Below are positions 8,249 to 33,914 of a stretch of 64,000 nt of DNA, in pieces; position 1 is the stretch's first letter; each line of letters opens with the position of its first letter. Below the pieces are notes generated by a model. It did no database searches and was not told the DNA's origin. It was given only the letters and a program-made list of their open reading frames with translations. Where the stretch lies: positions 8,487 through 72,486 of IMG/VR virus record IMGVR_UViG_3300035696_000034; one strand, written 5' to 3'. This DNA is from a virus (lineage: Duplodnaviria; Caudoviricetes). Made by a program: the position numbers and the translations under genes.

Positions 8249-8277
8249 TTGCATATTTCTGCTTTCGGGTGTATATT
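8249..8277 (+). promoter_or_regulatory. promoter of tRNA array 1
   Basis: TTGCAT-17nt-TATATT; GTGTATATTTAGTA shared with the promoter at 20201. Confidence 0.75.
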
Positions 8278-8311
8278 TAGTAGGATTCAAAAAACAGGAG
8301 AGCTACTTTCA

Positions 8312-8407
8312 ATGACTTCTCGCACAATCATGACGATCATCAGTATGGCTATCATTAGTGATTTTGATAGCATGGATGATTTCATGTCTCAGCGGGAGTT
8401 TTTTTGA
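8312..8407 (+). CDS. attenuator leader peptide 1 (31 aa, MTSRTIMTIISMAIISDFDSMDDFMSQREFF)
   Basis: AGGAG RBS at 8296-8300; codons match the anticodons of the downstream tRNAs. Confidence 0.85.
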   Translation: MTSRTIMTIISMAIISDFDSMDDFMSQREFF

Positions 8408-8475
8408 TAAAGTAGCATAACACAGAATCAAAAAGAGGCTCCCGCCGAGAGATCGACGGAAGCCTCTTTTATTTT
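8390..8475 (+). terminator. attenuator 1: antiterminator/intrinsic terminator pair
   Basis: terminator AAAAGAGGCT..AGCCTCTTTT (8431-8470) plus U tract; GCGGGAG..TTTTTGAT can instead pair with ATCAAAAA..CTCCCGC. Confidence 0.85.
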
Positions 8476-8477
8476 AT

Positions 8478-8557
8478 GGCAATGTAGCTCAGTTTTGGTA
8501 GAGCGGTGCTCTCATAAGGCGCGTCAGTCGGCGGTTCGATCCCGCCCATTGCCACCA
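8478..8557 (+). tRNA. tRNA-Met or Ile2 (CAU)
   Basis: cloverleaf, loop CTCATAA, encoded CCA. Confidence 0.85.
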
Positions 8558-8575
8558 GGTAAAAAGAAGGTTTTT

Positions 8576-8821
8576 ATGAATAGCAACGAAAATCACACAC
8601 AATGCCTCTTAATAAGCGATGGAGGCATGCAACAGGTCGCCTGGATACCAACAGTACGGGCTAACCTGAAGAGGATTAGAATAGACGGTACAGTGTTTAA
8701 CGTGAAAGAGCGATACAGCACGGTACCGAGTCGGGAAGTCCTAGATGATAGTTCAGATTACAGAAGGCACAGGAAAGCGACTGATCTGGAAAGCGGGTCT
8801 TGGAAAAGATTACCAGAATGA
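8576..8821 (+). CDS. hypothetical protein
   Basis: in-frame ATG after AGAAGG within ORF 8495..8821. Confidence 0.55.
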   Translation: MNSNENHTQCLLISDGGMQQVAWIPTVRANLKRIRIDGTVFNVKERYSTVPSREVLDDSSDYRRHRKATDLESGSWKRLPE

Positions 8822-8828
8822 AAATTAA

Positions 8829-8901
8829 TGCGGGAGGCTAGGCCCTGTGGTCTGGGAACTCTCATAAGGTTCCAACCTACGTTCAACTCGTAGTCCCGCA
8901 A
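8829..8901 (+). tRNA. tRNA-Met (CAU), atypical D arm
   Basis: TGCGGGA/TCCCGCA acceptor, GAACT/GGTTC stem, loop CTCATAA. Confidence 0.7.
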
Positions 8902-8958
8902 ATTTTGTTATCAATAGCAGCTTTAATTTCAACAGCTATTAATAAAATATCAACTAAT

Positions 8959-9036
8959 AGCAGGGTCGTCTAGTCCGGTTAAGATACTGGGCTCATAACC
9001 CGGAGATCGTTCGTTCAAATCGAACCCCTGCAACCA
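8959..9036 (+). tRNA. tRNA-fMet (CAU), initiator type
   Basis: 1-72 mismatch, GGG/CCC anticodon stem, CCA. Confidence 0.9.
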
Positions 9037-9044
9037 CTCACAGC

Positions 9045-9111
9045 GGGAGACCGACGTCAGTAGCTTTAGTAAAGTATCCGGTAAAGGATCTCTATTGACC
9101 TTTCGTCTCCC
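9045..9111 (+). ncRNA. tRNA-sized structured RNA candidate inside array 1
   Basis: GGGAGAC(C)GA/TCGTCTCCC, GTCAGTAG/CTATTGAC and two small hairpins. Confidence 0.45.
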
Positions 9112-9122
9112 CATGAATTAAA

Positions 9123-9198
9123 GGGCGTATCGTCCAACGGTTTAAGATGCGAATCTGATAAGTTCGAGATCGTAGTTCAATTCTACGTACGCCCACCA
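9123..9198 (+). tRNA. tRNA-Ile (GAU)
   Basis: cloverleaf, loop CTGATAA, CCA. Confidence 0.9.
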
Positions 9199-9204
9199 TT
9201 TTAA

Positions 9205-9277
9205 GGCTGTTTAGCCTACGCGGTCACGGCGCTCGCCTGAAGAGCGAGATATTCCAGTTCGACTCTGGAAGCAGCCA
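9205..9277 (+). tRNA. tRNA-Phe (GAA)
   Basis: cloverleaf, loop CTGAAGA; no encoded CCA. Confidence 0.9.
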
Positions 9278-9294
9278 TTTTTTAAGTTTACAAG

Positions 9295-9381
9295 GGAGAG
9301 TTGGGTGAATGGTAAAACCACGAGTTTGCTAAACTCGCGTCCGTCAAGGACATGCAGGTTCGAGCCCTGCACTCTCCGCCA
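9295..9381 (+). tRNA. tRNA-Ser (GCU)
   Basis: long variable arm, loop TTGCTAA, G73, CCA. Confidence 0.9.
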
Positions 9382-9388
9382 GTTTTAC

Positions 9389-9465
9389 GGGTCTGTAGTT
9401 TAGTTGGTTAAAGCACCTGATTGTCGATCAGGATATCGGGAGTTCGAATCTCCTCAGACCCGCCA
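9389..9465 (+). tRNA. tRNA-Asp (GUC)
   Basis: cloverleaf, loop TTGTCGA, CCA. Confidence 0.9.
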
Positions 9466-9474
9466 TTTTATACA

Positions 9475-9549
9475 GGGTTGCTCGTTCAGCGGCTAGGACC
9501 TACGGTTGTCGACCGTATGACAGGAGTTCAACTCTCCTGCAGCCCGCCA
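9475..9549 (+). tRNA. tRNA-Asp (GUC), second copy
   Basis: cloverleaf, loop TTGTCGA, CCA. Confidence 0.85.
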
Positions 9550-19937: not shown

Positions 19938-20204
19938 ATGTCCTCCCAGTTATCTGACTTTGAGAAAAAGACATACGTAGAACGAAGAAAAATAGAGACA
20001 GACCGTTTTGATGAGGGTATGAGACGACAGCACGATCCCAGGAATGATGGGGATTATGATCTAGATTGGGTCATAAGAAATGCTGCCGATTTCAACAGAC
20101 AGTGGAAAAATTGTATCTGTAAAAATTGCAAGAACGTTAAAGAGTGCGGTTTCAAATTAGCTACGGATTGTGCACATTTTGTTGAAGAAAAAAATAATAG
20201 TTGA
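19938..20204 (+). CDS. hypothetical protein
   Basis: 88 aa, RBS. Confidence 0.6.
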   Translation: MSSQLSDFEKKTYVERRKIETDRFDEGMRRQHDPRNDGDYDLDWVIRNAADFNRQWKNCICKNCKNVKECGFKLATDCAHFVEEKNNS

Positions 20205-20229
20205 CATTTCTTTGTTTTGCGTGTATATT
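20201..20229 (+). promoter_or_regulatory. promoter of tRNA array 2
   Basis: TTGACA-17nt-TATATT. Confidence 0.85.
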
Positions 20230-20257
20230 TAGTACAAAGGAAAAATGGTAAAGTCAT

Positions 20258-20383: not shown

Positions 20384-20444
20384 AGATACACTCTAATTGG
20401 CAAACAAAAACCCCGCCGAAGAAGTTCAGCGGGGTTTTTGTTTG
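20367..20444 (+). terminator. attenuator 2: antiterminator/intrinsic terminator pair
   Basis: terminator CAAACAAAAACCCCGC/GCGGGGTTTTTGTTTG (20401-20444); GGCGGGGTTT (20367-20376) pairs perfectly with AAACCCCGCC (20408-20417). Confidence 0.88.
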
Positions 20445-21445: not shown

Positions 21446-21450
21446 TTTAA

Positions 21451-22522: not shown

Positions 22523-22534
22523 GATTTATTTTGT

Positions 22535-22621
22535 GCGGATGTGGCGTAACTGGAAGCCGCGCAAGCCCGAGGCGCTTGTGGGAGAAGTCCCGTGCTGATT
22601 CGAATTCAGTCATCCGCACCA
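22535..22621 (+). tRNA. tRNA-Leu (GAG), C33
   Basis: CAAGC/GCTTG stem, loop CCGAGGC, CCA. Confidence 0.85.
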
Positions 22622-22658
22622 CTTCAATAATAGCTTCCCACAATGTTATATTATACAC

Positions 22659-23252
22659 ATGGATCTCTACATTGAAACTCGTGATCGCATGCTGGCTAAA
22701 GACAGGGATATATGGCTATGGTGCATGAACAACAAATGTGTTTACCTAAATATCGGATGTGGAGATAGCGTTTACGCAGGAGCGATAAACATAGACAAAT
22801 ATGTCAGAAGAAAAGATGTCTTACCTGCAGATGCCCTCTATCTTCCATTTAAAGATAACAGCGTGGATTTCATATATTCAGCCCATTCTCTGGAGCATTT
22901 GACTATAAGGGATGGAAAAAAGGCTCTAAAGGCCTGGTATAAGGCTTTAAAGCCAAACGGAAGACTTATAATAGAGTTGCCCGACTTAGAATGTATCTGT
23001 CGCAATGTCCTTAATTCTATATATCCTAAACAGCTACAATGGAACATTTATACTCTTTTTGGATATCAAATCGATCCTCGAAATTCAGACAGTTTAGATG
23101 CCAAAGCAGATCCTGGTCAATTTCATATGAGTGGATATACCCAAACAAGTCTATGCTTGGAACTTGCTATGTTAGGATTCGAGATAAAAGAGTTCCTGCA
23201 TACTGATGGTTATGGGACTCCCAACATGCATGTAGACGCCTTCAAAAGATAA
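22659..23252 (+). CDS. class I SAM-dependent methyltransferase
   Basis: LNIGCG, DALYLPFKDNSVDFIYSAHSLEHL, LKPNGRL. Confidence 0.85.
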   Translation: MDLYIETRDRMLAKDRDIWLWCMNNKCVYLNIGCGDSVYAGAINIDKYVRRKDVLPADALYLPFKDNSVDFIYSAHSLEHLTIRDGKKALKAWYKALKPNGRLIIELPDLECICRNVLNSIYPKQLQWNIYTLFGYQIDPRNSDSLDAKADPGQFHMSGYTQTSLCLELAMLGFEIKEFLHTDGYGTPNMHVDAFKR

Positions 23253-23256
23253 TCCT

Positions 23257-23340
23257 GCGGGTATGGGGAAATTGGCAGACCCAGTAGGCCCAGATCCTAC
23301 CGAGAGTAATCTCATTTCAGTTCAAGTCTGAATACCCGCA
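23257..23340 (+). tRNA. tRNA-Leu (CAG), C33
   Basis: GTAGG/CCTAC stem, loop CCCAGAT. Confidence 0.85.
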
Positions 23341-23360
23341 TTTCCTACATATCAATTTAT

Positions 23361-23446
23361 TGTGTGGTGGCAGAGCGGCCAATTGCACCTGACTGTAGAT
23401 CAGACGCCTGTAATGGGCTACGGAGGTTCAAATCCTCCCCACACAA
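23361..23446 (+). tRNA. tRNA-Tyr (GUA)
   Basis: loop CTGTAGA, long variable arm, A73. Confidence 0.88.
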
Positions 23447-23469
23447 CTCTTTTATAATCAACTAATTAT

Positions 23470-23544
23470 GGTGGCATTAGTGTAGTGGTAGCACAAGTGG
23501 CTGTGGCCCACTTAGAGCGAGTTCGATTCTCGTATGTCACCCCA
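23470..23544 (+). tRNA. tRNA-His (GUG)
   Basis: G-1:C73, loop CTGTGGC, CCA. Confidence 0.9.
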
Positions 23545-23572
23545 ATTTTAACTTTACAGAAAGGATAATCCC

Positions 23573-23904
23573 ATGCGAAAGGCAAGCCTACCTTAACGGT
23601 TACAGGTGAAACCGAAGATGGAAAATTAGTTGTATCAGGTGTCTTTGAACTCATGTCCTCTGTACTCGGAGTCCCCTTAGAGTTTCTCCTCGAGATGTTA
23701 AAAGAGAGAAACATTCTAGTAAGTTGGACTCACTTCTATAACTCCTCTGTAGAACATCTCTGGAGTTATAAGACAACAAGGGAGAGAGTGAGTACAGCTG
23801 TGTTTGAGGTTTACGGCCCGGAGTACAGAGATGAGGTGATGAAGAGGTTGGATTATTATCATAGGAGCGTATCAGACAGGTCTCCAAAACCTGATTTACT
23901 GTAA
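23573..23904 (+). pseudogene. hypothetical protein with apparent 1-nt deletion just after the start codon
   Basis: AAAGGA RBS and ATG 23573 are out of frame with the AKGKPTLTV... ORF; adding one G gives MAKGKP. Confidence 0.5.
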
Positions 23905-23944
23905 TTGGGTGAAAATGGGGGTTCGACTCCCTCCGCTCCTGCCA
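23863..23944 (+). tRNA. atypical tRNA-Trp (CCA): no D arm, long variable arm
   Basis: AGGAGCG/CGCTCCT, CAGGT-CTCCAAA-ACCTG, GGGGG-TTCGACT-CCCTC, G73-CCA; only 7 nt between acceptor and anticodon stems. Confidence 0.7.
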
Positions 23945-23981
23945 CCCATAAATTATCTGTTAATAGGTTTCGAATCTTAAT

Positions 23982-24057
23982 GCCGGTGTATCTCAATTAG
24001 TAGAGGGCCTCACTTGTAATGAGGAAGTTGGGGATGCAAGTTCCTCCACCGGCCCCA
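23982..24057 (+). tRNA. tRNA-Thr (UGU)
   Basis: loop CTTGTAA, CCA. Confidence 0.88.
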
Positions 24058-24064
24058 TTTTTTC

Positions 24065-24138
24065 GCTTCTGTAGTTTAAAGGTAGAATGCGCCCTCGGTA
24101 AGGGTGAGGAGCTTTCGGTTCGATTCCGGCCAGCGGCT
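24065..24138 (+). tRNA. tRNA-Thr (GGU), C33, degenerate acceptor stem
   Basis: CGCCC/GGGTG stem, loop TCGGTAA; one acceptor mismatch. Confidence 0.6.
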
Positions 24139-24145
24139 TTTTTCT

Positions 24146-24174
24146 TTAGGAATCAATTGTCTAGATAGTATATT
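24146..24174 (+). promoter_or_regulatory. possible promoter
   Basis: AGATAGTATATTA -10 motif; weak -35. Confidence 0.4.
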
Positions 24175-24258
24175 ATTATAGACCCAAACCTCATTGAAAG
24201 GAGCACATAATGGCATCCACCACCATGCGGTAGCGAGTACCGCTAGAAGGGATCCATT

Positions 24259-24531
24259 ATGTCTCATCCGAAGGATCGTCATGAACGCTTCCTCATCGGC
24301 AAAAAGCTTGGGGAAAAACGAGGGTACAGGTATTGGAATGGGTTTAAATTCATCCGGGACGAAGAGCAGAGGAAAGAAGATCTCAGAATAGCCTCTTTTA
24401 AAAGACGAGATACCACCAAACTTTGTTCTTGCATGATGTGTGGAAATCCTCGCAGGATGTCCTCAAAAAAAGATGTTAAGCTTACTATGCAAGAAAGAAA
24501 ACTTCCAGATTGGAAGAAGGAGGCAGAATGA
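24259..24531 (+). CDS. hypothetical basic protein
   Basis: 90 aa; CSCMMCGNPRR. Confidence 0.65.
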   Translation: MSHPKDRHERFLIGKKLGEKRGYRYWNGFKFIRDEEQRKEDLRIASFKRRDTTKLCSCMMCGNPRRMSSKKDVKLTMQERKLPDWKKEAE

Positions 24532-24716
24532 CTCGAGCTGCAGCAGGTCTTAAAAAACATTATTGGAATTGCGTAACAAAAGTATGGATGGCTGGTAATA
24601 CTAAACTATCCGCAGAGATGGTTTGTGCAGTTACCGGAACTCCTGATAAAAAATTGAATTTTAATAAAGTACGGATGCTACTGAAAGAAGCAGAAGACTA
24701 TATAAAAAATCTTTAA
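24528..24716 (+). CDS. hypothetical protein
   Basis: GGAGG RBS, ATGA coupling. Confidence 0.55.
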   Translation: MTRAAAGLKKHYWNCVTKVWMAGNTKLSAEMVCAVTGTPDKKLNFNKVRMLLKEAEDYIKNL

Positions 24717-24730
24717 CTAAAGGAGAACAT

Positions 24731-24988
24731 ATGCCTCAATTATCCGGAGACCTAAAGTCATATAGTGGAATAACTTTGATGGAACGAACAAAAAGTATGC
24801 TTGAAAAAGCCACAAAGCTAGGATTTACAATTCTCCCTTCCGTTTACAGAGATAAAACAACCAGTGAAAAGATCTATAATGTCTTCAAATGCTACAACGG
24901 TAAAGAAGAAGCCTATGCTCTTATAGTCAAAGACTGGATAAAAGGATTCCCGCGAATCGATTCTAAAGGGAATATCAAAGCAAAGTGA
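24731..24988 (+). CDS. hypothetical protein
   Basis: AGGAG RBS. Confidence 0.6.
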   Translation: MPQLSGDLKSYSGITLMERTKSMLEKATKLGFTILPSVYRDKTTSEKIYNVFKCYNGKEEAYALIVKDWIKGFPRIDSKGNIKAK

Positions 24989-25010
24989 TTTTATACGGGA
25001 AAGGTTTCTC

Positions 25011-25550
25011 ATGTACGTAATGGTTGATATCGAAGCGGATGGTCCGATCCCAGGGGATTATTCGATGATCTCGTTCGGGGCGGTTTTGATCGACAGATCA
25101 CCTTTAGCTATATCGACTAACAAGGAAAAATTCGATACTACCTTTTTTGGGAAGCTCCATCCCATATCTGATCAATTCGTTCCGGAAGCTCTGGCAGTTT
25201 CTGGTTATACCAGAGAAGAGACTATGACATTCCCCGATCCCCTCAAGGTTGTGCAGAATTTTGATCTATGGCTGCACGAGCATAATCGGGAGCAGCCAAA
25301 GTTTATTTCCGATAATAACGGATTCGACTGGATGTTTATGTGTTGGTATTTTTGGCATTTTCTCCATAAGAATCCATTCGGTCACAGTTCTACAAATTTA
25401 GGGTCATTTTATAAGGGCATCGAGAGGAGTTTTAAAAGAAATTTTAAACATCTTCGGAAGACCAGGCACTCGCATAATCCTATGGAAGATTCAATCGGTA
25501 ATGCAGAGGCATTTTGCACGATTATTCAGAACAATCATGTCGAGTATTAA
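25011..25550 (+). CDS. DEDDh 3'-5' exoribonuclease (Rv2179c-like)
   Basis: VDIEADGP, DNNGFDW, HNPMED. Confidence 0.8.
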   Translation: MYVMVDIEADGPIPGDYSMISFGAVLIDRSPLAISTNKEKFDTTFFGKLHPISDQFVPEALAVSGYTREETMTFPDPLKVVQNFDLWLHEHNREQPKFISDNNGFDWMFMCWYFWHFLHKNPFGHSSTNLGSFYKGIERSFKRNFKHLRKTRHSHNPMEDSIGNAEAFCTIIQNNHVEY

Positions 25551-25622
25551 GGGGCTGTAGATTAGTGGGAAATCGGGACACCGGCAGTGTTCAGAGCGTC
25601 AGTTCGACCCTGACCAGCTCCA
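25551..25622 (+). tRNA. tRNA-Ala (GGC), C33
   Basis: G3.U70, loop CCGGCAG, A73. Confidence 0.85.
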
Positions 25623-25637
25623 CTTTTAAGGATCATT

Positions 25638-25853
25638 GTGAATAAAGAAGAGTTCTACGAATACATGGACGATCAGAATAACTATGAGAGGGTCGTCCTG
25701 GGAATCGACATAGCAGTTATGCATGTTGGATTTGAAGCTGTCTACGATGCGAGCATACAGTGCGGCAGAGCTAAAGATGTTGAGGCTATGCAGTATATCA
25801 TAAATAACCATATAAACACAAACATGCTTGCAAAAATATCGGGGCTGCATTGA
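25638..25853 (+). CDS. hypothetical protein
   Basis: 71 aa, GTG start. Confidence 0.5.
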   Translation: MNKEEFYEYMDDQNNYERVVLGIDIAVMHVGFEAVYDASIQCGRAKDVEAMQYIINNHINTNMLAKISGLH

Positions 25854-26035
25854 AATACCCAAAGAACTTTATCAACTATTGGGACGAAGGTCAGAAAATC
25901 AGGCATCTGAACTGGAATCTAAAAAGAAACAGCACGCAGATTGTTAAAAGGCTGGGCATTGTTAGATGGTATAAAAAAGGATTCTGGAAGAGATATTTCA
26001 GGAAAAAGATGACGAGAGAGGCACTATGGGAATGA
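25850..26035 (+). CDS. hypothetical basic protein
   Basis: 61 aa, coupled. Confidence 0.45.
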   Translation: MKYPKNFINYWDEGQKIRHLNWNLKRNSTQIVKRLGIVRWYKKGFWKRYFRKKMTREALWE

Positions 26036-26292
26036 TAAAAGTCGGTGATTACTTTAAGACCAAAACTGGAGCTTTAGGTGTCGTTGTAATCCTCATAGGA
26101 GGAGGCACTCCTCGGGAACTCTACGGGGACATGGCTCCAGGAGCCGAGAGCGGCTATGAGTATTTCACACTGTACGTTGACAAAAATCTAAGATACGGAA
26201 GATCGAAGGTACAGCTGATGCCCCTCAATAGATATGCTATCGGGGATGTCACAAAGATCAGCAAACGAGAATACAATCAATTGTTGAGGTGA
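26026..26292 (+). CDS. hypothetical protein
   Basis: 88 aa. Confidence 0.55.
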   Translation: MGMIKVGDYFKTKTGALGVVVILIGGGTPRELYGDMAPGAESGYEYFTLYVDKNLRYGRSKVQLMPLNRYAIGDVTKISKREYNQLLR

Positions 26293-26558
26293 ATATGCTC
26301 CTTCCATCATCAACAACTGTAATGCGGATACCGTCTTACTTTCTTAGGGTAAAAAAGACTGGTATGATTAGTATAGCTTATGAATGTCATCCAGATGGCA
26401 TCCACCTTCACTTAGAGAGAGATTTACACGCATACACCTTGGAAGATCTGGAACCTGCAACTGAAGAAGAATATCAAGATCAAATAAGACGCATTAAAAA
26501 TACTCACACTGAAAAAGAATACAACGAACTTTTAGAAAATTTTAAAAAAAGACTGTAA
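26289..26558 (+). CDS. hypothetical protein, paralog of 28003..28257
   Basis: shared MLLP..VM.IPSY.L.VKKTG..DGIHL.LERDL..LEP.TEE.Y.DQI. Confidence 0.7.
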   Translation: MNMLLPSSTTVMRIPSYFLRVKKTGMISIAYECHPDGIHLHLERDLHAYTLEDLEPATEEEYQDQIRRIKNTHTEKEYNELLENFKKRL

Positions 26559-26574
26559 CTCAGCCGGAATAGAA

Positions 26575-26757
26575 ATGAACCTCTACAAATTTGGTGTTTT
26601 ATTGTTTTGGATTGGTGTAGTATTAGGCATCGCGGTGATTATCGGGAGCATATGGTGGCCACAATATACAATAACAACTTTAGGTGGAATTGTCGTATGC
26701 ATAGCAACATCCTCAATGGTTTCTGGAGTTTTTGTACTAATAATGTTAGAGGGATGA
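26575..26757 (+). CDS. small two-TM membrane protein
   Basis: two hydrophobic stretches. Confidence 0.55.
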   Translation: MNLYKFGVLLFWIGVVLGIAVIIGSIWWPQYTITTLGGIVVCIATSSMVSGVFVLIMLEG

Positions 26758-26761
26758 TTAA

Positions 26762-26953
26762 ATGGCACTAACAGCAGGACTCGCAAAAGTGATGGGTTGG
26801 AAGCTAGATCACCCCAACGGTCTTGATGACACGCCTTGGGTGATGCCTGTAGAATACAGAAAAGTCCCGACATTAGCAGATGTTATTAAACATGGCTTTG
26901 AGTTCTCAAGAAAAATTGAGCGGGATCTTAAAAAATTGAAGAGAAAGAAATAG
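26762..26953 (+). CDS. hypothetical protein
   Basis: 63 aa. Confidence 0.5.
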   Translation: MALTAGLAKVMGWKLDHPNGLDDTPWVMPVEYRKVPTLADVIKHGFEFSRKIERDLKKLKRKK

Positions 26954-26956
26954 TTT

Positions 26957-26978
26957 GGGGCTGTAGCACAGTTGGGAA
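26957..26978 (+). pseudogene. 5' fragment of a tRNA-Ala
   Basis: GGGGCTGTAGCACAGTTGGGA then breaks off. Confidence 0.6.
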
Positions 26979-27011
26979 TGTGTTTATAGGTATATATAAA
27001 GGAGTTTTTGT

Positions 27012-27605
27012 ATGAGCATGATTTCAATTGATTCAGAGTGGATTTGTGGAAACTCAATTCCAAGTGAATCATTCGTTTGTGGTTTTTGTAATGTAAGAAT
27101 TTCTTCGGCAAAAGGATTCAAATTGTTTTCAAAACAAATACGCGGTCATTCAAGATCTAAAACAAGAGGCGGTATATACATCTGCGATAATTGCAACGGC
27201 CCAACTTTTATTTCAGAAGCCGGGCATCAATATCCATTACCTGCTTTTGGGAGTTCTGTTAAAAATGTACCCCAAAACATAAACACACTTTATGAAGAAG
27301 CAAGAAACGGCACCAAAGCAAAAAATTATACGAGCTCAGTTTTATTGTGTCGAAAAATATTAATGCACATTGCAGTAGAGAAGGGTGCTGAACCAGGTTT
27401 ACCCTTTATTGGGTATGTGAATTTTCTAGAAGAAAATCATTACGTTCCGCCTGATAGTAGAAGTTGGGTTGATCGTATCAGAGTAAGAAGTAATGAGGCT
27501 AACCATGAAATTGAAATTATGACTCAAACAGACGCAGAGAATCTAATTACTTTTATTGAAATCATACTAAGGTTTCTGTATGAAACACCTAGTTTGATTA
27601 GATGA
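27012..27605 (+). CDS. DUF4145 domain protein
   Basis: CGFC..CDNC Zn ribbon; LYEEAR..SSVLLCRKILMHIAVEKGA..DRIRVRSNEANH. Confidence 0.8.
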   Translation: MSMISIDSEWICGNSIPSESFVCGFCNVRISSAKGFKLFSKQIRGHSRSKTRGGIYICDNCNGPTFISEAGHQYPLPAFGSSVKNVPQNINTLYEEARNGTKAKNYTSSVLLCRKILMHIAVEKGAEPGLPFIGYVNFLEENHYVPPDSRSWVDRIRVRSNEANHEIEIMTQTDAENLITFIEIILRFLYETPSLIR

Positions 27606-27611
27606 AAATTT

Positions 27612-27682
27612 GGGGCTATCGTCCAGTGGGAAGACTCTTGCCTTGCACGCAAGAAACGGCAGTTCGAATCTGCCTAGCTCCA
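27612..27682 (+). tRNA. tRNA-Ala (UGC)
   Basis: G3.U70, loop CTTGCAC, A73. Confidence 0.9.
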
Positions 27683-27709
27683 TTTAAATATTTATCAGAA
27701 AGGAACCTT

Positions 27710-27985
27710 ATGGGATCTAAATTTACCGTACCTCTTGAAAGAATTCCCTGGCCGGAAGAAATCAGCCGATGGGTTATTGCAATGATGCTTAAGAACAAAA
27801 CGGAAAAAGTAGAAATGACCTATAGGGAAGTTGATGAAGCTTCTAAAAATTATGAGTTAGTTGTAGCGGACAAACTTCTTCCAGATTCAGGTCTAAATGA
27901 AAAAACGGATCTTGGCAAAGCCGAAGTAATATTTTCATTAAGAAAAGTGGAAAAAGAATTAAGAAAACCTTTTTGGGAAGTTTAG
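27710..27985 (+). CDS. hypothetical protein
   Basis: AAGGA RBS, ATG 27710. Confidence 0.6.
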   Translation: MGSKFTVPLERIPWPEEISRWVIAMMLKNKTEKVEMTYREVDEASKNYELVVADKLLPDSGLNEKTDLGKAEVIFSLRKVEKELRKPFWEV

Positions 27986-28002
27986 CTTAAAAGGAGAGAA
28001 CC

Positions 28003-28257
28003 ATGCTTCTTCCAGGATCATTAATGACTGTAATGCAAATACCATCTTATTATCTTAAGGTAAAAAAGACTGGTAGGATTGGTATAGCTGATGAACCCCA
28101 CCACGACGGTATCCATCTTCGTTTAGAAAGAGATTTATATTGGTATTCGCTGAATGAACTAGAACCTTCAACTGAAGAAACTTATCTAGACCAAATAAAA
28201 CTCATCAAAAGTGCGCGTACAGATGAAGAGTATAAAGAAGTTCTTAAGGGGATATAG
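28003..28257 (+). CDS. hypothetical protein, paralog of 26289..26558
   Basis: AGGAG RBS; shared motif. Confidence 0.7.
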   Translation: MLLPGSLMTVMQIPSYYLKVKKTGRIGIADEPHHDGIHLRLERDLYWYSLNELEPSTEETYLDQIKLIKSARTDEEYKEVLKGI

Positions 28258-28306
28258 CTCAGCTGGGAGAGCACTACGTTCGCATCGTTCCCGATCATCT
28301 CCACCA
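28248..28306 (+). pseudogene. tRNA-Ala (CGC) with internal deletion
   Basis: intact acceptor, D arm, TTCGCAT loop and ACCA end; 3' anticodon stem, variable loop and most of the T arm missing. Confidence 0.7.
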
Positions 28307-28325
28307 AAATCGCAAAGGAATATTT

Positions 28326-28937
28326 ATGAAATCAAATTTTCCCACAGTTCCTGATTTAATTGCAAACGCAAAAGCTATTAAGAAGTTTAAAAGAGTGATA
28401 CACGAAAAATTAAATGTAGGTGAGATGCCGATATATGATATAAAAGCAGGTGACAAAGCTTTAAGTTACGATCCTTATAATCAAGGTTGGTATTTTGCCC
28501 CAACACTTAATGCTGAAATTGGTGACGATAATAACAGAGACGAGCGTTATACTAATACAGACCGAAGATGCTACACGTGTGGGTCTTTTGCAATTGATGA
28601 TCTTCAGGCATTTGAAGATTGTTGTAAAAATCTTGAGGATTGCAGTGGTAGAGAATTATTAATGATTACGTGGGGCGACAGATATGACGAATTTGCAATG
28701 ATAATTAAAGACATATATGAGAACAACCCGAAATATATCCTTACATCTTTAGAGCAGCGCTACAAAATAGCAGTCAATGCTTTAATCAATATTGTTAAAG
28801 GTGGATGTTTTTATCCCAACAAGAAAGAAGCTAAAACAGCCCTACAAAGACTTATTTATAAAACAGCGGATGAAGATAAGTCTATAACTCTTGGTCCTGA
28901 TTTTAAAAAAGAACTCATGAAAATATTAGCAGAATAA
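28326..28937 (+). CDS. hypothetical protein
   Basis: 203 aa. Confidence 0.65.
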   Translation: MKSNFPTVPDLIANAKAIKKFKRVIHEKLNVGEMPIYDIKAGDKALSYDPYNQGWYFAPTLNAEIGDDNNRDERYTNTDRRCYTCGSFAIDDLQAFEDCCKNLEDCSGRELLMITWGDRYDEFAMIIKDIYENNPKYILTSLEQRYKIAVNALINIVKGGCFYPNKKEAKTALQRLIYKTADEDKSITLGPDFKKELMKILAE

Positions 28938-29058
28938 AATAGGAATTATATATTTTGCTACCCAGGAGATAAATCTATGAAAAATTTATTATTTTTCATC
29001 AAGCATCCTTTATTCAGTATAAAACAACGAATACTTTTCATATGGTATTGGAAAATAA

Positions 29059-29289
29059 ATGGTAGAAAAACCTATGAAGAACTTAAAAAACATAAATAAA
29101 ATATTCTTACGCATAATCGGCTGGTGTCCATACTGCCGTACGATTTTTCATTATCCCAAAAAAAGGCGTATGAATACCCAATATGCCAAAGAAGAATCCA
29201 ATTGGGTTACTTGTTGCAAACCTCAATTTGATGAAATCCAAGAATACTGGAAAGAACGTTGGGCTGATTACTGGTCAGGTTGTCTATAG
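29059..29289 (+). CDS. hypothetical Zn-finger protein
   Basis: WCPYC..TCC. Confidence 0.55.
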   Translation: MVEKPMKNLKNINKIFLRIIGWCPYCRTIFHYPKKRRMNTQYAKEESNWVTCCKPQFDEIQEYWKERWADYWSGCL

Positions 29290-29301
29290 AAGGACAGTCT
29301 T

Positions 29302-29616
29302 ATGAAATCTTTAATCATGCGAGAACATGATGCTATGAAAAATAAAATGGGTCTTCGCTATTATAAAGATCCAGAAGGGGGCTATTCGAATTCCCCTATA
29401 ACGCCGCACTCAGAGGTAAGCCTGGGCTATGATTGGACTATCACGGTTGAATCTTTGGGCGTGAAACACAAATATAAACTTACCAGTAAATCTGGTATGA
29501 TATCTACCGCTGAAATAATTGCAGTCCTTTGTAAAAATACTGATTTAAAAATATTATTTACAGCGGAAGATAAGGCAAAATTCGAGCGTGCTTGGAAAAG
29601 AAAGTTTGGAAAATAA
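29302..29616 (+). CDS. hypothetical protein
   Basis: 104 aa, RBS. Confidence 0.6.
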   Translation: MKSLIMREHDAMKNKMGLRYYKDPEGGYSNSPITPHSEVSLGYDWTITVESLGVKHKYKLTSKSGMISTAEIIAVLCKNTDLKILFTAEDKAKFERAWKRKFGK

Positions 29617-29622
29617 TTTTTA

Positions 29623-29732
29623 GCTCGGGTGGCGAAATTGGTATACGCTGGGGTCTTAACGGGTAGAAGATTTTATTTCTATCCTTTAAACCCTTGGGGA
29701 AACCCATGAGGATTCGAGTTCCTCCCTGAGCA
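29623..29732 (+). tRNA. tRNA-Leu (UAA) with 28-nt hairpin insertion in the anticodon loop
   Basis: Leu-type D and variable arms; GGGGT/ACCCT stem; CTTAA-[29660-29687]-AA. Confidence 0.75.
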
Positions 29733-29761
29733 CTTTAAAATTTTTTATTTAAAGGTATAAA

Positions 29762-30079
29762 ATGTTAAGCCAAAAATTTAAAGACCAGCTTGCTGCTGTT
29801 GCTAAAAAATATAGAAAAAAGCGTATAGATTGTTGTGCAGCATGCTCCCTTGTTAAAGATAAGCAACATTGTAAATACTGTATCATGGAAAAAATCGATA
29901 TGTTTTGCGGTCGTCCAGTTGTCAAAGTATACGAACCCGCTCATTCTGTCTGGATGGTTCGTGAAACTCCTATTACTTATGAAGATGTGCTTAGGCTCTA
30001 TTCTGCACTAGAACTTTCAAAAGACATTTCTGATATAATTTATGATGATGATTGGGACAACGGCTATAAAAGCTGTTAA
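29762..30079 (+). CDS. hypothetical protein
   Basis: 105 aa. Confidence 0.55.
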   Translation: MLSQKFKDQLAAVAKKYRKKRIDCCAACSLVKDKQHCKYCIMEKIDMFCGRPVVKVYEPAHSVWMVRETPITYEDVLRLYSALELSKDISDIIYDDDWDNGYKSC

Positions 30080-30105
30080 ACATTCTACAGGTAAAAACAT
30101 TAAAT

Positions 30106-30339
30106 ATGTCATATGAACTTGGTCATTGCAATAAATGTGGTTGGAAGGGTGACATAGACAAAGCCGACCAAAGGACTGAGGATGAGCTTTTATATCTCTA
30201 CTGTCCAAAAGGTTGCGACGAAGAAGTAGCCCCTCGGAGACCTGTGAATGCTTCCAAGGATTATTTCGTGAACATGTTTCAGAATCTATTTAAAGAGAAA
30301 AAAGACGGATATGAATTTGATCCTGATGGGAAAAAATAA
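30106..30339 (+). CDS. hypothetical Zn-ribbon protein
   Basis: CNKCG..CPKGC. Confidence 0.55.
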   Translation: MSYELGHCNKCGWKGDIDKADQRTEDELLYLYCPKGCDEEVAPRRPVNASKDYFVNMFQNLFKEKKDGYEFDPDGKK

Positions 30340-30342
30340 TAC

Positions 30343-30436
30343 GGCGAGATGCCAGAGCCTGGTTTATCGGGCTAGTCTTGAAAACTAGTGTGGAGTTAAA
30401 AGGCCACCGCAGGTTCAAATCCTGCTCTCGCCGCCA
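30343..30436 (+). tRNA. tRNA-Ser (UGA)
   Basis: loop CTTGAAA, long variable arm, G73-CCA. Confidence 0.9.
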
Positions 30437-30444
30437 ATATGAAG

Positions 30445-30532
30445 GGAAGAGTGTCCGAGTGGTTTAAGGAGCACGCCTCGAAAGCGTGTGTGCAGAAATG
30501 TACCCTGGGTTCAAATCCCAGCTCTTCCGCCA
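30445..30532 (+). tRNA. tRNA-Ser (CGA)
   Basis: loop CTCGAAA, long variable arm, G73-CCA. Confidence 0.9.
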
Positions 30533-30549
30533 TCAAAGAAAAGTCCTTT

Positions 30550-30699
30550 ATGCCGAACGAATTAAAACGGTGTCCTTGTTGTGGTGGTGAAGCCCAGCGT
30601 TCATCCGATGGAGGATGTAGAAATTTTACTATTTTTTGTACCTCATGTGGATTAGACATCGTCGATTATGGCTCCCGTGAATATGGAAAAGAGTATTGA
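30550..30699 (+). CDS. Lar-family restriction alleviation-like protein, possibly truncated
   Basis: LKRCPCCGGEA..IFCTSCG. Confidence 0.55.
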   Translation: MPNELKRCPCCGGEAQRSSDGGCRNFTIFCTSCGLDIVDYGSREYGKEY

Positions 30700-30744
30700 T
30701 TATATTTGAGCTGAAGAGTTTATTATCATAGATTTGTAAAAATT

Positions 30745-31860
30745 ATGAAACTCATCCGTTCTTCCAAATGTAGCTTAAAATTCGCTACAACCTCCAAACT
30801 CTCTAAGCTTCGTAAGGTGCTTTCTGAATGTGGCCGAGTCTGTAACATCTTTATTGATTACTTTTGGAAAAGTGGCACTCCCTCTAAATCTGAACTCTTA
30901 AAAGAAATAGTAGACATCCCACAAGGCACTTGGCTGACCGCTCGGCTTCGTAAAATAGCCGCCCGGGAAGCTATAGACATGATTAATGCTGTGAGAGAGA
31001 GGTGGAAGGATAAACCTTGGAAGATCTCTATGCCCATACATAAGGGCAAGAGAGCTTACGTCTCCTGTACCATAGCGGATCTTCAGGAAAAAGGTGGTTC
31101 TAAGGAATTTGATGCCTGGCTTCATTTGTCCTCTGTCGGGAAAGAGACAATCCTGGACCTTCCTATTAAATTTCATAAACATTATAATAAATTAGCTCTT
31201 CAAGGAAAACGCTTGAATTCCTACATCCTTACAAATAAATATGTCCAGTTTTCATTTGAAATAGATGTAGGTGAGAAGAAAAATGGCGCTAACGCTATAG
31301 GCATAGATACTGGGATCAAAGCCCTTGCCTCTTTAAATAACGGCGCTCAATTCGGTTTAGATATTGAAACCCTTATCGAGCGTATCAAACGCTGTCAGCA
31401 TGGCTCTAATGGTCAGAAACAAGCCCGGAAAGCCTTTAAACAGAGGATAGATGAAGCCGTCAAAGAGGTAGTTAAACATTTTGAGCATATAGATTTGGTC
31501 GTGGTAGAAGCATTAAAAAACATGAATTACAAGAGTAAACTCAAACGTCGCTTGAGTAAAAATATGCGGCGTTCTATCGGCACTTGGGCGTATAGGTACT
31601 GGTTAAAAAGGCTGGAGCAAGCCTGTGAGACTAACCGTGTTAGTTTTCGCACCGTGGCTCCTTTTTATACCAGCCAAACATGTCCGAGCTGTGGTCATGT
31701 CGATAGGGGGAATAGAGTAGGACAAATGTTCCGGTGCCTAGTATGTGGTCACACAGGTAACGCAGATATTATTGCAGCCAGGAACATATTGACTCGATTT
31801 CTTACGGGACTCTACGGTGCCCGTTACAAACCATACGAAACTATATTTAATATTTCATAG
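30745..31860 (+). mobile_element. tnpB: TnpB/Cas12f-like RNA-guided endonuclease (IS200/IS605 family), no tnpA nearby
   Basis: RuvC motifs IGIDTG, VVEAL, TSQTCPSCG..CLVCG..NADIIAARNI; 3' hairpins at ~31804-31864. Confidence 0.88.
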
Positions 31861-31948
31861 TTTCAGAGGAACGGTGCTCCTTCTAATGATTGACTAACCA
31901 AAACCGAATAATTAACTAATAAGTTTCTCCTAAAAAAGAGGAGAAACC

Positions 31949-32230
31949 ATGTATAAACAGCAGGTCACAATACTGAACAAAAATGGGTTGCACGCTCGTC
32001 CAGCGGCTGAGATAGTACAGGAAGCCTCAAAATACGAGTCTGAGATAAAAATCATTAACATAAAAGAAAGTATTACAGTCAGTGCAAAAGTAGTTATGGA
32101 GCTGTTGTTACTCGGGGCTTTTTGTGGGACGGAGCTTCTTATAGAGGCGACAGGCAAAGATGAAGAGGAAGCCGTCAAAAACATAGCCAACAGAATAGCG
32201 GGATTCTCATCAATGGATGAAGGAGATTAA
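31949..32230 (+). CDS. ptsH: phosphocarrier protein HPr
   Basis: NGLHARPAA, SAK..M.LL.LG, A.GKDEEEAV. Confidence 0.9.
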   Translation: MYKQQVTILNKNGLHARPAAEIVQEASKYESEIKIINIKESITVSAKVVMELLLLGAFCGTELLIEATGKDEEEAVKNIANRIAGFSSMDEGD

Positions 32231-32231
32231 T

Positions 32232-32444
32232 ATGAACAAACAATCTTTAGAAGAAAAGGTAAACAATATCCTTCGTAATCATACAATCAGCGTCCTTAAT
32301 AACAATGTTGTTAATGTCCCTAAAAAAGGACCGGTGTCGGAAAGTTTTATCAATGAGATTAAAAAAAGCAGAGAGAACATCTTAGAAGAAGAAAAACGTA
32401 CTTCCAAGAAAATACTAGCACTTCTAAAGACAAGGCAATCATGA
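32232..32444 (+). CDS. hypothetical protein
   Basis: AGGAG RBS. Confidence 0.55.
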   Translation: MNKQSLEEKVNNILRNHTISVLNNNVVNVPKKGPVSESFINEIKKSRENILEEEKRTSKKILALLKTRQS

Positions 32445-33298
32445 ACTCTGTTAAAACTAAAAAGAGCTCTTACACGGACAATTCGACCGAAGAGAAGATC
32501 CTGACTCAATATATGGAAGATGTTGGGAGATACAAACCCTTAAGTTCGGTAGAAGAGCACGAATTGGCAAAGCGTATACGCAAAGGGGACAAGAAAGCAG
32601 CGGAGAAATTAATCAGGGCGAATCTTACTTTTGTGATAACGGTAGTCAACAATTACAAAAATCAAGGATTGCCGCTTTTGGATCTTATTAATATCGGTAA
32701 CATGGGACTTATACGAGCAGCCAAAAAATTTGATGAAAGAAAAAACTATAAATTCATATCCTATGCAGTGTGGTGGATACGTCAGGCTGTCTTAGGAGCC
32801 CTAGCGGATCAGTCTAGAGCTCTGAGGATCCCTATGCATTGTGTTTCTCAGATCGTGAGTATGAGAAAAATAAAAGAAAAGATTGAGAGAGAAAAACAAA
32901 GAGAAGCTTATCCAGAAGAGATTGAGGCAGCACTAGCTCTTAAGCGCCCTACAGCCTTGAATAAATTGATATCGATAGATACTCCTCATTTATCTCTCGA
33001 TACCTCCTCTTTTGATAACGGAGCGCCTTTGGTGGAGCTTATGGAAGGTGAGAGCGACTCTCCGGAAGATTTAGTTTTAAAATTGTCAGAAAAGGAAGAT
33101 ATTAAGAGAAAGCTAGGTTGTCTGACAACGATGGAAAAAAAAGTTATCTGTGAATACTACGGTATAGATAAAGAGGACGCCAAGACTCTTGCAGATATTG
33201 GTAAAAAGTTTAGACTCACGAGAGAGCGCGTGCGTCAGATTAGAGAGCAAGCTCTAAAAAAGCTACGAGCCTGTTACAAAAACAGTTGCAGGGAGTAA
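32441..33298 (+). CDS. RpoD/SigA-family sigma-70 factor lacking region 1.1
   Basis: LIRANL.FV, DLI..GN.GLIRAAKKFD, FISYAVWWIRQ, LTRERVRQI. Confidence 0.93.
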   Translation: MNSVKTKKSSYTDNSTEEKILTQYMEDVGRYKPLSSVEEHELAKRIRKGDKKAAEKLIRANLTFVITVVNNYKNQGLPLLDLINIGNMGLIRAAKKFDERKNYKFISYAVWWIRQAVLGALADQSRALRIPMHCVSQIVSMRKIKEKIEREKQREAYPEEIEAALALKRPTALNKLISIDTPHLSLDTSSFDNGAPLVELMEGESDSPEDLVLKLSEKEDIKRKLGCLTTMEKKVICEYYGIDKEDAKTLADIGKKFRLTRERVRQIREQALKKLRACYKNSCRE

Positions 33299-33305
33299 AC
33301 ATAAT

Positions 33306-33524
33306 ATGGAAGACTCTAATGATTTTAGTGTCCCCGGTATGATGAGGGGTGATTTCTCTGAAGAATTCCTAAAAAAGCTCGGTTTTAAAAAAGCAGTCAT
33401 AGACGAAAGCTGTTTATTCGATGGCAAAGACATCCACAGAGTAATGGCGCTTCCTGATGGTCCAGTCGGTTTGAAGTTTTTCGAAAGATACATAAAGAAT
33501 CAAGAAGAGCATCCAGAAATATAA
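33306..33524 (+). CDS. hypothetical protein
   Basis: 72 aa. Confidence 0.55.
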   Translation: MEDSNDFSVPGMMRGDFSEEFLKKLGFKKAVIDESCLFDGKDIHRVMALPDGPVGLKFFERYIKNQEEHPEI

Positions 33525-33607
33525 GCCCAGGTGGTGAAATTGGTATACACGCAGGTTTCAAAAACCTGTGGGAAACCATGAGCGTTCAACTCGCTCCCTG
33601 GGCACCA
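33525..33607 (+). tRNA. tRNA-Leu (CAA)
   Basis: loop TTCAAAA, variable arm, A73-CCA. Confidence 0.9.
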
Positions 33608-33629
33608 CTTTAAACTGAAGAGTAAAAAC

Positions 33630-33839
33630 ATGCTCAAAATTATTAACCGTCCACTCCCACAGGCTTGCTGTAGCTCGTGTGGCGGTAAAATTGGTGACCC
33701 CTTTCACGATGATAACTGCCTAGCGTATCAGAGTAGCCAGCACCCTATTAGAGAAATTTTATTTTCATTTTTACGTGTAAGTATATTAAGTTCAGTACTA
33801 ACATTTATTACAGTGTTGTTAAACGGAGGCGTACGCTAA
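33630..33839 (+). CDS. hypothetical protein
   Basis: 69 aa; end overlaps tRNA-Ser. Confidence 0.4.
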   Translation: MLKIINRPLPQACCSSCGGKIGDPFHDDNCLAYQSSQHPIREILFSFLRVSILSSVLTFITVLLNGGVR

Positions 33840-33914
33840 CTGGTAAGCGACAACATTGGAAATGTTGCGTCCTTTAAAATGGACTTGGGCGTTCGAGCCG
33901 CTCCGCCTCCGCCA
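33825..33914 (+). tRNA. tRNA-Ser (GGA)
   Basis: loop TTGGAAA, long variable arm, G73-CCA. Confidence 0.88.

Follow-up and report, generated by a model that had tools for sequence, protein, structure and literature searches.

Why phages carry tRNA genes has been debated for fifty years, with codon compensation, the replacement of degraded host tRNAs, and the evasion of anticodon nucleases as the reasons under discussion. The locus described here raises a narrower question, namely, whether a phage can itself sense which tRNAs are in short supply and express the corresponding genes on demand. It lies on a 72,486-base viral contig from IMG/VR (IMGVR_UViG_3300035696_000034; Caudoviricetes), which CheckV puts at 29% of the genome, and the window that we analyzed comprises bases 8487 to 72486 of this contig, a stretch of 64,000 nucleotides (nt) to whose numbering all unmarked coordinates refer; the 8.5 kb preceding the window were fetched as L005. 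We consider it likely, with a probability of roughly 0.75, that the contig has three ribosome-mediated (leader-peptide) transcription attenuators, one heading each of its tRNA blocks, in which a short open reading frame (ORF) would report on the supply of the very tRNAs that are encoded behind it.

An earlier note on this DNA, drawn up from the sequence of the window, had described two leaders and argued that they divide codon space between them. Its leader 1 and array 1 are called unit B here, its leader 2 and array 2 are called unit C, and a unit that precedes the window is called unit A. ARAGORN finds 24 tRNA genes in the window, every one of them on the + strand.

Leader reading frames and tRNA arrays in the window

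Unit B consists of the following elements.

8249..8282, + strand: promoter (-35 TTGCAT at 8249-8254, 17-nt spacer, -10 TATATT at 8272-8277, then TAGTA; read from the sequence)
8312..8407, + strand: leader ORF B (31 codons; AGGAG at 8296-8300, 11 nt upstream of the ATG)
8327..8386, + strand: control block B, codons 6-25 (Met, Ile [ATC/ATT], Ser [AGY], Asp, and Phe codons; 18/20 cognate to array B)
8392..8400, + strand: region 2 (GCGGGAG, itself at 8392-8398, plus Us), whose partner is either region 1 (8315-8323) or the 5' arm of the terminator (CUCCCGC)
8431..8475, + strand: intrinsic terminator (stem 8431-8470, then a U tract; its end lies 3 nt before the first tRNA gene)
8478..9549, + strand: array B, with Met(CAU) x3, Ile(GAU), Phe(GAA), Ser(GCU), and Asp(GUC) x2 (ARAGORN and Rfam tRNA model)

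Array B is compact, with eight tRNA genes and no complete protein-coding ORF up to the end of the array. In order to judge its leader, the codons that the tRNAs of an array can read by standard wobble rules were compared with a background given by the codon usage of the long ORFs of the contig. By this measure, array B reads 20 of the 30 codons of leader B, against a background share of 0.18 (binomial P = 5e-9), and in the best segment 16 of 17 codons are cognate (P = 3e-9, dynamic programming). Leu, Cys, Trp, His, and Tyr are absent from the leader (P = 2e-3 for 30 codons), and the Ser codons of its core are AGT, AGT, and AGC, in agreement with the earlier description of a leader that lacks these five amino acids and uses AGY for the Ser residues of its core; two TCT codons (codons 3 and 26), which lie outside the core, have to be added to that description.

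Unit C is organized in the same order, with an additional ORF between the terminator and the first tRNA gene.

20201..20234, + strand: promoter (-35 TTGACA, 17-nt spacer, -10 TATATT, then TAGTA)
20258..20383, + strand: leader ORF C (41 codons; ribosome-binding site weak or atypical, the closest GGA being 16 nt upstream)
20282..20356, + strand: control block C, codons 9-33 (22/25 cognate to array C)
20367..20376, + strand: region 2 (GGCGGGGTTT, codons 37-40), a perfect 10-nt complement of the terminator 5' arm at 20408-20417
20401..20444, + strand: intrinsic terminator (17-bp stem plus U tract)
20500..20955, + strand: HNH endonuclease-like ORF between the terminator and the first tRNA gene (weak Pfam HNH and HTH matches)
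21305..33914, + strand: array C, 17 tRNA genes over 12.6 kb with interspersed ORFs (ARAGORN, Rfam tRNA model, and Infernal)
23863..23941, + strand: atypical tRNA gene within array C (CCA [Trp] as the anticodon, nearly no D arm, 20-nt extra region; Infernal 35 bits)
29623..29732, + strand: class II tRNA gene within array C (hairpin insert of about 28 nt in the anticodon loop; Infernal 37.6 bits)

The tRNAs of array C are specific for Cys, Leu (UAG, GAG, CAG, AAG, CAA, and probably UAA), Tyr, His, Thr(UGU), Ala (GGC and UGC), and Ser (UGA, CGA, and GGA), and one of them is Trp-like. The picture of this array as a compact block does not hold, as many ORFs stand among its tRNA genes, with two HNH endonuclease-like proteins, TnpB, a sigma-70-like factor, a methyltransferase, and an RNase T-like exonuclease among their products.

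Leader C fits this array in a different manner. Array C reads 24 of its 40 codons, against a background of 0.31, and the best segment, codons 9-33, has 22 of 25 cognate codons (P = 6e-6, dynamic programming). The control block holds all six Leu codons, all four TCN codons for Ser, both Cys codons, three Ala codons, two Thr codons, and codons for His, Tyr, and Trp, while the third Thr codon of the leader, ACC, is codon 8 and lies just outside the block. Every one of the 14 secure isoacceptors of array C is covered by the leader, which none of 300,000 random 40-codon ORFs achieves; when the two atypical tRNA genes are included, the coverage is 16/16, compared with 0/100,000 random ORFs. The earlier statement that this leader has no Phe, internal Met, or AGY codon and writes Ser as TCN is accurate for 20258-20383 (P = 3e-2 for these absences in 40 codons), where TCT, TCG, TCC, and TCA occur once each.

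Both atypical tRNA genes improve the match, in that leader C contains TGG once and TTA twice. For the gene at 23863, ARAGORN proposes Ser(ACT), an assignment that we rejected because alignment to the Rfam tRNA model puts CCA at the anticodon and makes the tRNA Trp-like. The gene at 29623-29732 is probably Leu(UAA), although the intron mode of ARAGORN reads it as Lys(UUU). Both ends of its enlarged loop resemble an anticodon loop, CUUAA.. suggesting Leu-UAA and ..CUUUAA suggesting Lys-UUU. The insert is below the size of a group I intron, and the fact that an RNA ligase and a polynucleotide kinase/phosphatase (PNKP) are encoded 8 kb downstream raises the question of whether this tRNA could mature by being cut and rejoined.

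A third unit and a shared promoter class

The window contains no tRNAs for Arg, Gly, Lys, Glu, Gln, Asn, Pro, or Val according to ARAGORN and the Rfam tRNA model, exactly the eight amino acids that the earlier note had listed as missing when it predicted that further leader-array units would exist. The rest of the available contig was searched with the promoter motif of that note, two mismatches being allowed, and one extra + strand match was found at contig 2448, 6 kb ahead of the window. It belongs to the following unit, which occupies contig 2428-8151 and is listed in contig numbering.

Contig 2558-2638: leader ORF A (26 codons; GGA 6 nt upstream of the ATG)
Contig 2609-2620: region 2, a 12-mer whose complement at contig 2663-2674 gives a 12-bp antiterminator
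Contig 2659-2697: intrinsic terminator (strong hairpin, then a U tract)
Contig 2748-8151: array A, with Pro(UGG), Asn, Asn, Pro(UGG), Gln(UUG), Pro(CGG), and Gln(CUG)

The control block of leader A is a run of nine consecutive codons, NPNNNQPQP, and the best segment accordingly has 9/9 codons of its own array (P = 4e-8, dynamic programming). Array A has seven tRNA genes, the first of which begins about 50 nt past the terminator. The correspondence extends to synonymous codons, since CCC is the one Pro codon missing from the leader, which has CCT, CCA, and CCG, and Pro(GGG) is missing from the array, which has Pro(UGG) and Pro(CGG). The prediction of a further unit is borne out for Asn, Pro, and Gln; Arg, Gly, Lys, Glu, and Val are not covered, and tRNAs for these five are absent from the contig, itself about 29% of the genome.

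Two further features of unit A were noticed. Its 5' untranslated region of about 95 nt (L005:2462-2557) folds into two stable hairpins, and nothing comparable is present in units B and C. Directly after a tRNA-Asn gene, a degenerate tRNA-like sequence (L005:4104-4176) with an odd anticodon loop and an odd T arm precedes a U tract and may represent a tRNA gene that has decayed and now serves as a terminator within array A.

The promoters of the three units belong to one class. The motif that the earlier note had reported as common to both promoters, the 14-mer GTGTATATTTAGTA, has just two exact copies in the window, one at 8269 and the other at 20221. The promoter of unit A reads TTGACATTTC, 13 nt, TATATTTAGTA, and deviates from this 14-mer by 2 bases, while the 11-mer TATATTTAGTA has three exact copies in the 72.5-kb contig, one per leader promoter and none elsewhere. 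Promoters A, B, and C can be aligned without gaps, a stretch of A-rich upstream sequence included, and the promoter of unit C is the top sigma-70 match in its 20-kb stretch (11/12). No further promoter of the shared class was found in the contig beyond the three leader promoters, and a scan of IMG/VR for the shared pattern gave a single match, to an unrelated contig without tRNAs. The sequence TTGACATTTC, which forms the -35 region of units A and C, has a third exact copy at 21213-21222, after the HNH-like ORF and 90 nt before tRNA-Cys. This copy was not counted as a promoter, being without a usable -10 hexamer, and it may be a remnant of the insertion of the endonuclease gene.

Codon matching across the three units

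In all three units, a short ORF with a start codon and a ribosome-binding site, the latter weak in unit C, lies between promoter and terminator, and its regulatory codons are clustered and matched to its own array (9/9, 16/17, and 22/25 in units A, B, and C). When each leader was scored against each array, the match was confined to the diagonal of the table (A-A 9/25, B-B 20/30, and C-C 24/40), and none of the off-diagonal cells was significantly above background (P >= 0.15). The codon sets are disjoint: set A stands for Asn, Pro, and Gln; set B for Met, Ile, Ser-AGY, Asp, and Phe; and set C for Leu, Ser-TCN, Ala, Thr, Cys, His, Tyr, and Trp. No other leader-like ORF was found before any subcluster inside arrays A and C.

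Serine is the sole amino acid that is represented in two arrays, and here the tRNAs and the leaders alike divide along the two codon families (P ~0.008). The division that had been pointed out earlier, with AGY codons and Ser(GCU) in unit B and TCN codons and Ser(UGA/CGA/GGA) in unit C, stands at this level of significance, and it supports the view that the leader-array match, as read from the sequence, is resolved down to isoacceptors. Taken together, the third unit, the diagonal table, and the Ser split lend in silico support to the proposal of the earlier note that the phage runs a modular, isoacceptor-resolved tRNA supply system. With disjoint codon sets in their leaders, the three tRNA blocks would be independently switchable.

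RNA folding and the proposed mechanism

Leader-peptide attenuators combine a promoter, a short ORF with clustered codons, alternative 1:2, 2:3, and 3:4 pairings, and an intrinsic terminator, and a ribosome that stalls at a hungry codon causes read-through into the operon. The leader regions of the contig fold more stably than shuffled sequences, with z scores of -6.0 (B), -8.5 (C), and -5.7 (A), and the minimum free energy fold of each unit contains the terminator hairpin together with an upstream helix that hides region 2. The terminators of all three units are hairpins of -20 to -23 kcal/mol or have a 17-bp stem, followed by U tracts, and region 2 matches the terminator 5' arm perfectly over 7 to 12 bp across the units.

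The consequences of a stall were modeled by forcing a ribosome footprint of 31 nt to be single-stranded and folding the transcript up to the terminator loop. Under this constraint, a stall anywhere in the control block yields the 2:3 antiterminator in units A, B, and C. With the ribosome placed at the stop codon instead, the terminator 5' arm stays free in units B and C. From an anatomy, codon statistics, and alternative pairings that were all established in silico, we infer that the leaders are translated, that ribosomes stall in them, and that RNA polymerase then reads through.

The sequence of events would be as follows. Host RNA polymerase would start at the shared sigma-70-type promoter, and a ribosome would translate the leader. 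If the control codons are decoded fast, the ribosome would cover or pass region 2, the terminator (3:4) would form, and the tRNA genes would stay silent. If a cognate charged tRNA is scarce, as may happen when the host supply suits the codon usage of the phage poorly, when the host is shut off, or when a defense system cleaves tRNAs, the ribosome would stall in the control block, region 2 would pair with region 3, and RNA polymerase would enter the array. The new tRNAs would speed up decoding and so close a supply loop, and because the product of the operon is the sensed molecule, each unit would act as its own negative-feedback loop. Leaders A and B repeat a few codons, whereas leader C samples nearly every synonymous codon of eight amino acids once, a near-complete listing that would allow it to open on a shortage of any single isoacceptor.

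Codon-matched leaders in other viral loci

The generality of the design was examined in 119 other viral loci, chosen by the sole criterion of two tRNA T-arms 60-90 nt apart; together with this contig they gave 1,264 tRNA gene calls. Ninety-one clusters of at least 3 tRNAs with upstream DNA, two of them from this contig, were scored by the best short ORF within 400 nt upstream, and as a control, the same ORFs were scored with the codon sets of other clusters (n = 758). A score of P <= 1e-4 was reached by 5 of the 91 clusters, two of which are units A and B and three of which lie outside this contig, compared with none of the 758 controls.

Independent codon-matched leaders, each then followed by a hairpin with a U-rich tail, were recognized in five loci (L043, L055, L093, L038, and L074/G003). 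In L043 (site 370-515), the ORF has 19 codons, a block of 13 of which includes cognate codons for every one of the ten tRNAs that follow (Ser x3, Leu x4, Phe x2, and Tyr), and a 21-bp terminator immediately precedes the first tRNA. In L055, the ORF lies about 330-430 nt before position 3329 and contains codons for Met, Leu (TTA), Glu, Gln, Pro, and Cys; the tRNAs of the array behind it are Cys, Gln, Gln, Pro, Glu, Glu, Leu(UAA), and Met, and the terminator arm of this unit behaves as expected in the stall folds. In L093, an ORF rich in Leu, Gln, Pro, and Trp precedes Leu, Pro, Trp, and Gln tRNAs (before 930); as this locus belongs to a 43.7-kb record classed as a complete provirus, the design does not seem to be confined to giant phages. 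L074/G003 has ten consecutive codons cognate to a block of 17 Leu, Tyr, Arg, Ser, Phe, and Thr tRNA genes (P = 8e-5); G003 also has minus-strand arrays, where its contig ends within the array. L038 is less convincing (after 3853, minus strand): its ORF has codons for Ser, Cys, Trp, and Pro, and the tRNAs behind it are those for Trp, Pro, Ser, and Cys.

Serine again is instructive. In the unrelated phage of L043, AGY- and TCN-reading Ser tRNAs share one array and the leader mixes AGY and TCN codons; set against the split Ser of the present contig, this supports matching at the level of isoacceptors.

Most of the sampled arrays have no such ORF. Among the 58 informative clusters, 4 reach P <= 1e-3, a proportion that is a lower bound because many clusters are cut by the ends of their loci. 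Judged from sequence, the codon-matched leader design is recurrent, not universal. On balance we favor the broader view that codon-matched leader attenuators form a widespread and so far undescribed class of phage module, in which each tRNA block would have its own sensor of decoding speed and the codon table would be shared out among the blocks. If this is true, such a module could detect and answer the depletion of host tRNAs or tRNA-cleaving defenses.

Two side observations were made in these loci. Besides L043, L055, L093, and L038, the site L128:2353-2570 makes up the set of five unrelated IMG/VR records with independent codon-matched leaders before tRNA arrays, and class II tRNAs (Leu, Ser, and Tyr) tend to be grouped in the leader-gated arrays.

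Alternative explanations

The alternative that survives best, unlikely as we consider it, accepts the attenuators as real and holds that they sense general translation capacity or amino acid starvation, in a manner resembling erm-type regulation, the codon match being a side effect. A stalled ribosome is indeed blind to whether a tRNA or an amino acid is lacking, any slowdown in the leader would favor the 2:3 pairing, and the accessory tRNA arrays of Anabaena are induced by general translational stress (PMC8421152 and PMC10272220). A general sensor would, however, have no need for three disjoint codon sets that each fit their own array, for the AGY/TCN split between units B and C, or for one codon per isoacceptor in unit C, and the independent phages show the match again with other sets of amino acids.

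More doubtful still is the idea that the attenuators serve chiefly the protein genes in the arrays (the sigma factor, the methyltransferase, the RNase T-like exonuclease, and the homing endonucleases) and that the tRNAs are transcribed from unrecognized promoters of their own. It draws its appeal from array C, where many ORFs lie on the same strand, where the HNH-like ORF is the first gene past the leader terminator, and where terminator-like sites follow tRNA-Leu at 21529 and 24138. It fares badly in the other two units: the first tRNA of unit B stands 3 nt past the U tract in a block of eight tRNA genes with no complete protein-coding ORF, and that of unit A stands about 50 nt past the terminator. 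Moreover, neither an extra promoter of the shared class nor an internal leader was found, and it is to the tRNAs that the codons are matched.

The least credible alternative, that the short ORFs are chance frames and the hairpins plain terminators or insulators before strong tRNA promoters, with nothing being sensed, can point to the 755 ORFs of 20-60 codons in the contig and to the weak ribosome-binding site of leader C, yet it would have the terminators, which lie downstream of the shared promoters, stop those promoters' own transcripts, and it has to face segment P values of 4e-8, 3e-9, and 6e-6 that hold for the own array only, 2:3 complements that are exact over 7 to 12 bp, and foreign codon sets that reach P <= 1e-4 in 0/758 control trials.

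Several observations nevertheless weigh against three codon-sensing attenuators that control tRNA arrays. As regards the switch itself, the stop codon of leader A lies 16 nt past region 2, so that in the footprint model a ribosome at this position leaves region 2 uncovered, and termination in unit A would rely on the re-forming of the 1:2 hairpin or on kinetics. The sensor, moreover, cannot distinguish a missing tRNA from a missing amino acid.

In unit C, the core of the leader contains ATA, CAG, GGA, and CGC, which are read by no tRNA of array C, and the leader has a poor Shine-Dalgarno context, with a 7-codon mini-ORF (20245-20268) overlapping its start. The HNH-like ORF and a small ORF, about 860 nt in total, intervene between the terminator and the first tRNA gene. 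Given that the array is 12.6 kb long and has the terminator-like sites just mentioned within it, we infer control of its distal tRNAs by leader C from the codon match. The mini-ORF is in a different frame from leader C and has a GGA nearby, and leader C may start by reinitiation instead of at a ribosome-binding site of its own.

Finally, no close relative with the leader regions was found among isolate phages, in IMG/VR, or in a metagenome scan. Megablast and blastn searches of 50,697 isolate phage records returned only generic tRNA-Asp matches, and IMG/VR protein scans with a metallophosphoesterase, a 276-amino-acid protein (5-member alignment), and a 796-amino-acid protein (3-member alignment) gave no matches. 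The lineage is rare, two proteins of the window having 2-4 homologues each among 5.8 billion proteins. In the metagenome scan, the sole syntenic relative (L007, 57% identity) corresponds to window positions 250-7470 and ends 1.7 kb past the syntenic part, before the position of leader B; another contig (L008) shows 38% identity and has no tRNAs in the stretch examined.

Neighboring genes and mobile elements

The earlier note had named four supporting proteins. Three of these, the RNA ligase, the PNKP, and the CCA enzyme, were confirmed by Pfam.

37352..38407, + strand: RNA ligase (Pfam RNA_ligase, 9e-24)
38411..39304, + strand: PNKP (Pfam HAD_PNKP, 1e-48, with AAA_33)
45510..47276, - strand: CCA-adding enzyme-like protein (Pfam PolyA_pol head, RNA-binding, and HD domains)

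RNA ligase and PNKP together make up the T4-type tRNA repair pair. The fourth, a supposed PTH2-like protein (788-1162), did not hold up, as Pfam reports nothing and PHROGs returns only a 'hydrolase' family.

A complete sigma-70-family factor (regions 1.2, 2, 3, and 4) is encoded at 32441-33298, within array C, where Ser(CGA) and Leu(CAA) lie on either side of it; if its gene is cotranscribed with the array, leader C would gate its expression, too. An amber-suppressor-type tRNA with the anticodon CUA (3382-3457) stands alone between arrays A and B and has no leader of its own.

Mobile-element genes are scattered over the tRNA islands (20500-20955, 21626-22522, 30745-31860, and 34118-34753 in the window and L005:1412-2242). 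They comprise three HNH endonuclease-like ORFs, TnpB, and a GIY-YIG/NUMOD3 endonuclease just before unit A. The HNH-like ORF at 20500..20955, between the unit C terminator and the first tRNA gene, is probably a mobile insertion, and insertions of endonuclease and TnpB genes have probably stretched arrays that were once compact.

Comparison with known systems

To our knowledge, the leader-peptide attenuators known so far regulate protein-coding operons, for amino acid biosynthesis, synthetases, transport, or resistance. The multivalent enterobacterial leaders of thr (Thr and Ile) and ilvGMEDA (Ile, Leu, and Val), and likewise those of his, trp, leu, and phe, share their anatomy with the phage units. 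In contrast to these amino acid operon leaders, the phage units regulate tRNA genes, so that the sensed molecule is the operon's own product; they sample up to eight amino acids, and nearly every synonymous codon, per leader; and they form a phage-borne set that partitions codon space. No known RNA-family leader matches the window at the gathering threshold. For the Rfam family Thr_leader (RF00506), whose cutoff is 55 bits, unit C reaches 24.9 bits and unit A reaches 25.1 bits, and His_leader (RF00514) attains 31.2 bits, on the wrong strand, against a cutoff of 49.

Along with the multivalent thr and ilvGMEDA leaders, those that precede synthetase genes are the nearest formal analogues of the phage units. 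In E. coli, pheST with its pheM leader is an example of a leader-peptide attenuator before aminoacyl-tRNA synthetase genes. A His leader has been described for hisS paralogs in bacilli (PMC2965389). In these systems, as in the phage units, a leader peptide controls a component of translation for the same codons; there, however, the component is a protein enzyme and a single amino acid is concerned, whereas the phage units would control tRNAs for many amino acids.

T-box riboswitches sense the charging of a tRNA by binding it directly via a specifier codon, with no need for translation. They have in common with the phage units the choice between terminator and antiterminator and the sensing of tRNA charging, and they differ in being specific for one tRNA via its anticodon; where the T-box has direct tRNA binding, the phage units have an ORF. 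No T-box was matched in the window at the gathering threshold, and at a relaxed threshold, with E values of up to 1 allowed, none was detected between positions 20000 and 34500 or within the 8.6 kb comprising unit A.

With respect to the regulated genes, the nearest parallel is the trn operon of Anabaena sp. PCC 7120, an accessory tRNA array under the repressor TrcR (PMC8421152 and PMC10272220). There too, extra tRNAs are kept off and are switched on by impaired translation. The trn operon is, however, a single array with no codon-resolved sensing, and the papers that describe it mention no attenuation, leader, or terminator. Phage tRNAs have also been discussed as a counterdefense against host systems that cleave tRNAs (PMC10264068, PMC11555353, and PMC11464382). 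In so far as it was examined, this work concerns the function of the tRNAs, and no cis-acting transcription sensor was found in it; it does provide a reason why topping up tRNAs on demand would be of use to a phage. Full-text literature searches returned no published account of leader-peptide attenuation of tRNA genes.

If there is indeed a sensor before each array, the phage gauges for itself how fast each codon is decoded and adjusts its tRNA supply to this, and a cis-acting sensor of this kind would be direct genetic evidence that tRNA shortage is the selective problem that the arrays address. Being small and portable, the leaders could be used as natural biosensors that report how well single isoacceptors are supplied, and the match between leader and array would offer a simple rule by which tRNA islands of phages can be annotated and sets of coregulated tRNAs predicted. 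The units presented here differ from the attenuators described to date in that the regulated gene is a tRNA, that the sensor is broad and resolves codons, and that the codon table is partitioned among several units; classical attenuation would thereby be extended to a loop in which the molecule that is sensed is the product of the operon itself.

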